Sequence record: PQ850610.1
From: Escherichia phage JacquesWildberger_Bas92
Direction: 5' to 3' (one strand)
DNA length: 64,000 bases
Positions 41,861 to 43,162 of this stretch are shown here, in pieces. The number at the start of each line of letters is the position of its first letter. Position 1 is the first letter of the stretch. Below the pieces are notes generated by a model, which ran no database searches, was not told the DNA's origin, and saw only the letters and a list, made by a program, of their open reading frames with translations. The translations under genes and the position numbers were made by a program.

Positions 41861-43162
41861 TTAGTTGTTTGTTTCTATGTCAAAAGAGAATCCACGACCC
41901 GCTTCATCGGCAAACCGAGCTGTATGGGTTTGAGGCTCTAATACTTCAGGGTTGTTAGCAATAAAGCGAGCGGCGAGATTATCTTCCACATCTTGACTAG
42001 AGGGCTGACGTGCACTAACGTTGAAGCCATTCGGTCGACCACGAGAAGGACTAGACATCCATCTTTCCATAGAATCACTTGTAACACCAAGAGCTTCTTC
42101 AAAAGATGTTCTACGGGTAGAGCTTAGATTTCGTGCTTCATGTGCCACTCTTGCAGGGGTTACAAATAACCCTTCAATTGCATTATGTCGATTAGGTTCA
42201 TCTTCCCGACCAAGGAGATCACCTCCTGCATTAGTTGTTAAGTTTGTCAACCCTTCAGACCAATACGCACGAATCTGGCTAGAGCCATAAATGCCTGACA
42301 TTAACTGAATCTCTTCATAAGGTATATCAAAGAATCGACTCATGTCTCGGTTAACACAATACTGAGCACTTGTTGTATCCTCAATAAGAGCAACCTGACC
42401 CCGTTCGTTGACCAGATGACTAACCGGCTGAGGTGTGGGAAGGTGTCGAGTTTGGGCCATGTATTGATATGCAGCTGCTGGATAGGAAAATCTCAACACT
42501 TGCGAGTTAGGCCACTTCTTGTGAACATACCTGATTTCACGACTAGAAACAACCACTGGACAAGGGGCGGTCATAGCCAAGTATCCATGAGGGGTCATGA
42601 ATAAGTTATCAAGAGTCATCGCACCACGGCACATCATAGGAAAATTATCCAATACCTCTTCAATAGAAGTAGGATAATTAAACATGAATTGGATACGAAC
42701 ACCATTCCACTGAAACTCAATAATATCAGTGAATGTTAATTGAGAACCCCCAGCATATGGCTCATCTGTAGCTTCAACAAGAAGAGATGAATACTCAATA
42801 TCTTGTGATTCAAGCCATTCCTTCACATTACTTTCAATCTCCCGCCCAAGCATTTGCCACTGCTCGGTTGGGATAAAGGTGTTTCGAGTTCTTGGTGTTT
42901 GTCCTCTGACAATAAAGATATCGATGTCATGTGGAGCTGTGTTATTAAGAACAGCATCACGAATAGCCCCACCAGTAATGATAGGGCAAATACCATCTGG
43001 AATCAAGTTGTTGTTAATCAACTGTTCAATGAAGTGACGACCAACAGTGATATCAGGTTGTTGAGCAACCTTATCTTCAATTCGGTTAATCGGGATAACA
43101 ATCATTTTACATTTTCCAATATAATGAAGGTGGGTCATAAGGATCAAATCCTGTGTGTTCAC
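41861..43162 (-). CDS. pol-beta-superfamily nucleotidyltransferase (CCA-adding-enzyme-like head) with disordered C-terminal half
   Basis: [11 protein letters not shown]...HDIDIF matches GGxxRD...DxD NTase head motif. Confidence 0.5.

Follow-up and report, generated by a model that had tools for sequence, protein, structure and literature searches.

Class II nucleotidyltransferases, which include the CCA-adding enzymes and poly(A) polymerase, combine a catalytic motif A with a motif B for ribose recognition, which reads RRDLTINA in Escherichia coli Cca and RRDFTINS in PcnB, and a base-templating motif D, which reads EDPLR and EDPVR in the same two proteins. A predicted nucleotidyltransferase is also found among the verified anti-defence proteins of phages, namely Gad2, a 400-residue anti-Gabija protein of Bacillus phage SPbetaL7, the mechanism of which is still open according to a 2026 review. 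Here, we compare with these systems a minus-strand gene of Escherichia phage JacquesWildberger_Bas92 (sequence record PQ850610.1), located in a stretch of 64,000 nucleotides that was analyzed as a whole and is referred to below as the window. The gene product is a Pol-beta-superfamily nucleotidyltransferase and constitutes a very divergent, lineage-specific offshoot of the class II (CCA-adding enzyme/poly(A) polymerase) branch. Among the explanations of its role, we rank first, if tentatively, that of an active host-interacting or counter-defence nucleotidyltransferase.

A class II-type catalytic head in an ortholog of phiEco32 gp73

The mechanically called open reading frame (ORF) comprises 433 codons (41861..43162) and begins with a GTG at 43162. 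In annotated relatives, however, the gene always starts at an ATG equivalent to M20, 19 codons inside this ORF, and in the window the corresponding ATG (43105-43103) lies 1 nt past the TAA stop of the gene for an exonuclease subunit. We therefore dropped the GTG in favour of this ATG, so that the real gene encodes a protein of 414 residues (Table 1), to which all residue numbers given here refer. This protein is an ortholog of phiEco32 gp73 (phi32_73), sharing 79-94% identity with gp73 itself and with Bas93_0060, which is annotated as "nucleotidyltransferase". Its exact sequence was not found in a large protein collection; the closest relative is 94% identical. At the DNA level, the 3 kb around the gene are 98% identical to Escherichia phage AidaStucki_Bas93, while phage LAMP, SU10, and further podophages of the phiEco32 type reach 92-97%; these relatives belong to the genus Kuravirus in the subfamily Gordonclarkvirinae. 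The SU10 ortholog has previously been seen by mass spectrometry.

The catalytic motif was assessed in an alignment of 26 family members with identities down to 20%. Residues 45-62 of the window protein read GGAIRD…DID, and both GGxxRD and DxD are present in 26 of the 26 members; the match to the head motif of tRNA nucleotidyltransferases, on which the original prediction was built, is thus not a chance resemblance. Thirteen columns are invariant (G45, G46, R49, D50, D60, D62, F64, Y117, I128, Q139, P156, Y193, and K197), and the invariance of the motif residues among them indicates that the catalytic apparatus is intact. In addition, position 127 is acidic in every member (D in 17, E in 9), and the strand order of the structure model lets us infer that this residue may provide the third carboxylate from a neighbouring strand. 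The core is under purifying selection, with a ratio of nonsynonymous to synonymous substitution rates (dN/dS) of 0.10, compared with 0.08 for the neighbouring exonuclease subunit (Nei-Gojobori method, eight close phages). Taken from the sequence, the prediction of catalytic competence is well supported, and the enzyme is probably active.

Profile and fold comparisons bear out the assignment of a Pol-beta nucleotidyltransferase with a head resembling that of CCA-adding enzymes. The window protein matches PHROG 12715 ("nucleotidyltransferase") over its full length (E 3e-221) and PHROG 1614 with an E-value of 5e-8, and the best fold matches of its head are class II nucleotidyltransferases, that is, CCA-adding enzymes and poly(A) polymerase. 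The similarity is nonetheless distant: the Pfam family of the poly(A) polymerase head (PF01743) reaches only 18.9-20.2 bits, below its gathering threshold of 23, and the family profile aligns with a solved CCA-adding enzyme over 27 residues of motif A (E 0.004, 19.9 bits). Direct sequence searches of solved structures, NCBIfam, and PADLOC gave no match to the window protein.

Comparison with CCA-adding enzymes

Beyond motif A, the family departs from the enzymes that act on tRNA. The RRD of motif B is found in one of the 26 members and is absent from the window protein, which instead reads N-F-P-M-M-C-R-G at the position expected from the spacing (F-P-x-M-C-R-G across the family). Motif D, [ED]DxxR, likewise occurs in a single member and not in the window protein; this lone instance, at residue 266 of the protein P0046, is about 70 residues away from the [DE]xxYxx[KR]K of the same protein (residue 195), which corresponds to the invariant [DE]190-x-x-Y193-x-x-[KR]-K197 of the family. 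Spacing and secondary-structure order, the only guides here, lead us to infer that FPxMCRG is equivalent to motif B and [DE]xxYxx[KR]K to motif D; a profile-based mapping of motifs B-E onto E. coli Cca and PcnB aligned motif A alone. The helical body and tail domains by which these enzymes bind the acceptor and T-arm of tRNA had no equivalent in the structure model, Pfam, NCBIfam, or the sequences of the Protein Data Bank (PDB). Moreover, the window protein is acidic, with an isoelectric point (pI) of 4.95 and a net charge of -18, and contains no basic RNA-binding module; the median pI of the family core is 4.8, compared with 9.7 for poly(A) polymerase I (PAP I).

These features bear directly on the proposal, made in the original prediction, that the enzyme repairs the CCA ends of phage or host tRNAs after attack by tRNA-targeting defences of the host, which would fit with the tRNA-Arg gene of the phage. 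In favour of this proposal, motif A and the head fold are nearest to those of CCA-adding enzymes, the phage does carry a tRNA gene, and CCA-adding enzymes of jumbo phages have been predicted in the literature to mend tRNA. However, PF01743 stays below threshold, motifs B and D and the tRNA-binding body and tail are missing, and the protein is acidic, without a basic module. The tRNA-Arg(TCT) gene (57778-57852, minus strand), the sole Rfam or ARAGORN hit in the window, encodes its own 3' CCA and lies 15 kb from the nucleotidyltransferase gene, and we therefore rejected a functional tie between the two. The host, furthermore, has its own Cca, and the curated annotation of Bas93, the nearest phage, offers no partner in RNA repair, such as an RNA ligase or a polynucleotide kinase, at record positions 28000-68851, which cover the non-structural gene arm. 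Finally, a fall to 32% identity between genera would be odd for an enzyme that works on the invariant end of tRNA. It is accordingly well supported that the gene product is not a CCA-adding enzyme, and tRNA 3'-end repair by such an activity appears highly improbable. For the other role named in the original prediction, that of a nucleotide-signal modifier, the sequence by itself speaks neither for nor against.

Divergence within a conserved replication operon

When the window is compared with Suseptimavirus ECBP2, the nucleotidyltransferase is the most diverged of the 68 shared ORFs, with 31.7% identity over the 69% of its length that can be aligned, against a median of about 79% for the whole set. 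Its surroundings are far better preserved: the primase/helicase, the exonuclease subunit, and the dCTP deaminase of ECBP2 are 94, 80, and 96% identical to those of the window, respectively. The same picture is seen in the Suseptimavirus-type loci, where these three proteins are 94, 80-87, and 93-96% identical, whereas the nucleotidyltransferase retains 36-39% identity in its core and is unalignable in the remainder. Such a pattern is typical of host-facing genes.

The ECBP2 comparison also drew attention to other parts of the window. Four small minus-strand ORFs (35967-36389, 36393-36647, 57199-57486, and 59035-59331) show 39-44% identity, and six ORFs, for example 56592-56903 and 60175-60540, have no ECBP2 counterpart. 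These low-identity or unmatched ORFs are candidates for fast-evolving early or host-interaction genes.

The position of the nucleotidyltransferase gene is strictly kept. The order primase/helicase, exonuclease subunit, nucleotidyltransferase, dCTP deaminase was observed in 10 of 10 related loci with visible context, and this synteny extends to uncultured relatives with 29-32% identity. The gene is co-transcribed with genes for T7-like replication and nucleotide metabolism; between 39500 and 46500, no promoter- or terminator-like site exceeded the shuffled expectation, so that nothing sets it apart from its neighbours. The family as a whole is tiny and phage-restricted. When 1.84 billion representative proteins were searched exhaustively with a profile, cellular relatives being sought as well, only 32 clusters were recovered, to which a second, word-indexed profile search added almost nothing, and among 50,697 phage records the gene was found only in 97 Gordonclarkvirinae infecting Escherichia or Shigella.

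Divergence is unevenly distributed along the protein. An AlphaFold2 model computed from the 26-sequence family alignment (mean predicted local distance difference test score, pLDDT, 75.9) is confidently folded up to about residue 288; residues 290-375 have pLDDT values below 50, and residues 374-412 are modelled as a low-confidence helix and hairpin. The disordered part consequently amounts to about 125 residues. The original prediction had described a low-complexity C-terminal region of about 200 residues; the disordered tail itself is upheld, but it is shorter than claimed, and its composition is biased rather than truly of low complexity (E, R, A, and S at 10.5% each in residues 301-414; entropy 3.86 bits). 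Within the Kuravirus group, dN/dS climbs from 0.10 in residues 1-215 to 0.17 in residues 216-290 and 0.40 in residues 291-414, and the tails differ by in-frame indel modules, the window allele having the shortest one. Together, the ratio of 0.40 and the in-frame indels indicate that the tail is coding and weakly constrained, rather than junk. No tandem repeats were found that would explain the origin of the tail indels. The end of the tail (residues 363-414) carries a net charge of -5; a bipartite arrangement of basic followed by acidic stretches was considered and rejected as weak and not general. Short members of the family, of about 280 residues, have no tail.

Candidate functions and resemblance to Gad2

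Precomputed Pfam annotation assigns PF26128 (Gad2), marked as weak, to most of the close relatives of the window protein (83-85% identical). We compared the family with Gad2 itself (OQ921347.1, 109563-110765), for which a family of 569 hits was collected and 28 members were aligned. Profile-profile alignment with hhalign gave probabilities of 63-79% and E-values of 1.5e-5 to 7e-5 over 100-110 columns, pairing residues 22-174 of the window protein with residues 15-127 of Gad2; nothing aligned beyond Gad2 residue 127. The shared region comprises the helix before motif A, the GGA…DxDxF segment, and the strand with the invariant glutamine (Q139, corresponding to Q88 of Gad2), and it also pairs F-P-x-M-C-R-G with F-D-F-T-V-C-M-G of Gad2. 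In the N-terminal part of the AlphaFold2 model of Gad2, the secondary-structure elements follow one another as they do in the window protein. Further likenesses are that both are phage proteins of about 400 residues with an N-terminal nucleotidyltransferase core starting some 25-45 residues in, and that Gad2 and the window family are both acidic (pI about 4.9). A distant kinship of the catalytic cores of gp73-type proteins and Gad2, short of membership in one family, is thus plausible but unproven.

Our first-ranked explanation, an active enzyme that interacts with the host or counters its defences, draws together the intact catalysis, the lost tRNA features, the acidity of the protein, its resemblance to Gad2, and its extreme divergence amid conserved operon neighbours. 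The enzyme would perform Mg2+-dependent nucleotidyl transfer and no longer recognise tRNA; its likely target would be a host or host-defence-related molecule, or a nucleotide substrate, in the service of host takeover or counter-defence. The disordered tail may act as a flexible recruiting or regulatory module. A counter-defence role is put forward here as a hypothesis, for which Gad2, as an anti-Gabija predicted nucleotidyltransferase, provides the analogy.

Several observations weigh against this explanation. In every relative seen, the gene belongs to the core of the module for replication and nucleotide metabolism and is strictly syntenic; in this it differs from most accessory anti-defence genes, and a function in DNA metabolism would be in keeping with it. 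Its extreme divergence could stem from relaxed constraint or from the exchange of old alleles, and not from an arms race. As for Gad2, cross scores of hidden Markov models against sequences amount to just 16-20 bits, stay within motif A, and are no improvement on the 19.9 bits obtained with the CCA-adding enzyme. Gad2 also possesses a folded helical and beta-rich C-terminal half (residues ~140-400) that is absent from the window protein, where the disordered tail is found instead, and it lacks the R-D of GGxxRD that the window family has. PF26128 proteins occur in prophages as well, and the SPbetaL7 gene belongs to a variable anti-defence locus, as carried by temperate Bacillus phages, rather than to a replication operon.

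A more far-reaching version, which we regard as doubtful, is that gp73-type proteins and Gad2 form two branches of a phage-specific, class II-derived clade that defeats host immunity enzymatically, be it by nucleotidylating a defence protein, by consuming or converting a nucleotide sensed by nucleases such as Gabija, or by installing an undetected modification. If so, the divergence would be the footprint of an arms race and the disordered tail a module for target recruitment, and an undetected modification would account for the restriction resistance of Gordonclarkvirinae.

This resistance was noted by the authors of the BASEL collection, who described Gordonclarkvirinae as remarkably resistant to restriction in the absence of a known modification or inhibitor and proposed that the pair of dCTP deaminase and nucleotidyltransferase may signal DNA modification. 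In the window, we counted 32 sites for EcoRV, 8 for EcoRI, 7 for EcoKI, and 91 for EcoP1. Missing sites therefore do not explain resistance to these systems, and site absence as the cause was rejected for EcoRV, EcoKI, and EcoP1. Relative to a second-order Markov expectation for the whole window (1-64000), other sites are strongly avoided, with 4 observed and 99 expected for CCWGG, 129 and 297 for GATC, 0 and 21 for PstI, and 0 and 13 for KpnI. Over-represented are the EcoRV sites (32) and CAGCAG (96 observed, 52 expected).

The main rival to a host-directed enzyme takes up the suggestion of the BASEL authors: together with the adjacent dCTP deaminase, the nucleotidyltransferase would modify DNA or deoxynucleoside triphosphates (dNTPs) or handle the dNTP pool. 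Nucleotidylation or activation of a base, of a nucleotide, or of a DNA end would then render the genome refractory to restriction. This accords with the gene order, conserved in all relatives with visible context down to 29% identity, with the apparent translational coupling to the exonuclease gene, and with the loss of the ribose-reading RRD, which would be compatible with the use of dNTPs; likewise, Gordonclarkvirinae are reported to resist restriction, and sites for EcoRV, EcoRI, EcoKI, and EcoP1 are still present in the window, and it is the same gene pair to which the BASEL authors point. However, CCWGG, GATC, PstI, and KpnI sites are strongly avoided, a sign that restriction pressure on the DNA persists. 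It also counts against this rival that no DNA-modification pathway is known to employ a class II-type nucleotidyltransferase. Kuravirus phages that are otherwise very similar carry one of two alleles of the dCTP deaminase gene (minus strand; Table 1), which are about 59% identical to each other, the second being annotated as "dUMP-forming" in two of the three loci carrying it (phages 1-6af and SR02). These alleles assort independently of those of the nucleotidyltransferase: a nucleotidyltransferase of 33% identity is found beside a dCTP deaminase of 93-96%, and the dCTP deaminase of 59% beside nucleotidyltransferases of 78-85%, which argues against tight coupling of the two genes. In addition, dCTP deaminase, ThyX, and a deoxynucleoside monophosphate kinase constitute an ordinary route of deoxythymidine triphosphate supply, and the BASEL paper demonstrated no modification in these phages. 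Overall, we judge a role in DNA or dNTP modification to be unlikely.

Two further rivals invoke other substrates. Non-specific RNA 3'-tailing of the poly(A) polymerase type, by which host transcripts, RNA primers, or regulatory RNAs would be tagged for decay during takeover, would make sense of a stretch rich in R and S in the tail (residues 318-362) and of the expression of the gene alongside early and middle genes. In PAP I, too, RNA binding depends on a disordered region at the C-terminus. Yet the protein and its whole family are acidic, contrary to PAP I, the tail is net negative, the EDxxR kept in PAP I is lost, and short members of about 280 residues do without any tail, which together make RNA tailing rather improbable. 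The other rival, a T7-like replisome accessory factor that is tethered by its acidic C-terminal tail and acts on DNA 3' ends or primers, we consider very unlikely. It agrees with the location of the gene between the exonuclease subunit and genes of nucleotide metabolism, and with the primase/helicase (43655-45445, minus strand), whose acidic tail, like that of T7 gp4, closes with an aromatic residue (…NQADGASPW); W, F, or Y is likewise the last residue of several family members, and the window protein has an acidic, F-containing end. The C-terminal aromatic residue is, however, inconsistent across nucleotidyltransferase alleles, so that a gp4-like "hook" common to their tails was rejected as a general feature and leaves but a weak rival. 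Moreover, tails that cannot be aligned between genera, while replisome proteins are 80-94% identical, are hard to square with conserved docking.

In some 100 phiEco32-like phages that are candidates for therapy, this gene already bears the label "nucleotidyltransferase"; this family annotation and the flag raised in one paper were known before. The new results are that the product falls outside the CCA-adding enzymes, that no other shared gene diverges faster, and that the family can tentatively be linked to Gad2. Ruling out a CCA-adding activity does away with a misleading label used repeatedly in GenBank. Because it encodes an intact enzyme, is the most diverged shared gene within a highly conserved replication operon, and weakly resembles Gad2, the gene is a concrete candidate for two questions, namely what makes Gordonclarkvirinae resistant to restriction and other defences and by which mechanism Gad2-type nucleotidyltransferases act. 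Members that infect E. coli K-12 (BASEL phages Bas86-94) render it experimentally tractable.

Neighbouring genes and known relatives

Table 1. Position of the nucleotidyltransferase gene, the segments of its product, and its two neighbours in the window.
Feature	Position	Strand	Basis and remarks
Nucleotidyltransferase gene, 414 aa + stop	41861..43105	-	Gene calls in relatives; ATG 1 nt after upstream stop; PHROG 12715 E 3e-221
Two N-terminal helices + class II-type catalytic head, aa 1-180	42566..43105	-	
Motif A, aa 43-64; G45, G46, R49, D50, D60, D62, F64 invariant	42914..42979	-	Column counts in 26-member alignment; matches motif A of CCA-adding enzymes
Neck-like helical subdomain, aa 181-288, ending in a W-S-x-G-L motif	42242..42565	-	pLDDT 72-95; alignable among closer relatives only; dN/dS 0.17 for aa 216-290
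Family-specific helix motif R-[DE]-x-x-Y-x-x-[KR]-K-x-P, aa 189-199	42509..42541	-	Y193 and K197 invariant; position 190 always D/E
Intrinsically disordered linker, aa 289-373, R/S/E/A-rich	41987..42241	-	pLDDT <50; in-frame indels between relatives; dN/dS 0.40 for aa 291-414
Acidic C-terminal element, aa 374-414	41864..41986	-	Block kept among Kuravirus-type alleles; low-confidence helix + hairpin
DNA polymerase 3'-5' exonuclease subunit, upstream neighbour	43107..43661	-	Pfam PF01612; PHROGs 38876/403; stop 1 nt before nucleotidyltransferase start
dCTP deaminase, downstream neighbour	41318..41851	-	Pfam PF22769 E 4e-34; PHROG 1663

The replication module shows several peculiarities of its own. 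The family A DNA polymerase is split, its 184-residue 3'-5' exonuclease subunit (Table 1) being encoded about 7 kb from the polymerase-domain gene (34106-35950, minus strand), and in relatives the polymerase gene is further broken by insertions of endonuclease VII or HNH homing endonucleases. The terminal W or F of the primase/helicase is conserved in all relatives examined (…SPW, …LPF, …SPF) and recalls the docking of the T7 gp4 tail on DNA polymerase. The module also keeps a Dps/ferritin-like "DNA-binding protein" (40150-40761, minus strand; PF00210 E 3e-7, PHROG 3636), an unusual part of a podophage replication operon. Upstream of the replication genes, a conserved minus-strand cluster (~45600-55100), assigned by homology to Bas93_0064-0075 and relatives, encodes a gamma-glutamyl cyclotransferase (GGACT), a RimK-like ATP-grasp ligase, a GlmS-like glutamine amidotransferase, an amidoligase, and a COOH-NH2 ligase, and looks like a modification system forming peptide or amide bonds. 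A hypothetical protein of this cluster (53848-55044) is 42% identical to its ECBP2 counterpart.

Compared with class II tRNA nucleotidyltransferases and PAP I (for example PDB 1miv, 3h37, 4wby, 1ou5, and 3aql), the window protein shares motif A at the N-terminus of the head and a spacing of conserved blocks that is compatible with a head followed by a neck. The sequence match is, however, limited to 27 residues, with PF01743 below threshold; the phage family has F-P-x-M-C-R-G in place of RRD and [DE]xxYxx[KR]K in place of EDxxR, and a disordered tail of 125 residues stands where these enzymes have their helical body and tail. The phage protein is also acidic, and its family is confined to a single phage lineage.

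A second group of relatives in form is found in podophages, T7-like and others, whose short proteins annotated as "poly(A) polymerase head domain" (PHROG 1614) consist of a class II-type head only, with a fold like that of the head of the window protein. In BFVD, Foldseek matched entries from Providencia phage PS3, Aeromonas phage phiAS7, and Vibrio phages with E-values of 5e-8 to 7e-6 and target-normalised template modelling scores of about 0.6. These proteins differ from the window protein in their length (167-215 residues, without the neck-like subdomain and the tail), in sequence (~16% identity), and in their assignment to a different PHROG. Similar to the window gene, they are encoded in DNA-metabolism regions; this also holds for the "tRNA nucleotidyltransferase" of Acinetobacter Friunavirus, which has been reported to be among the most variable genes of these phages.

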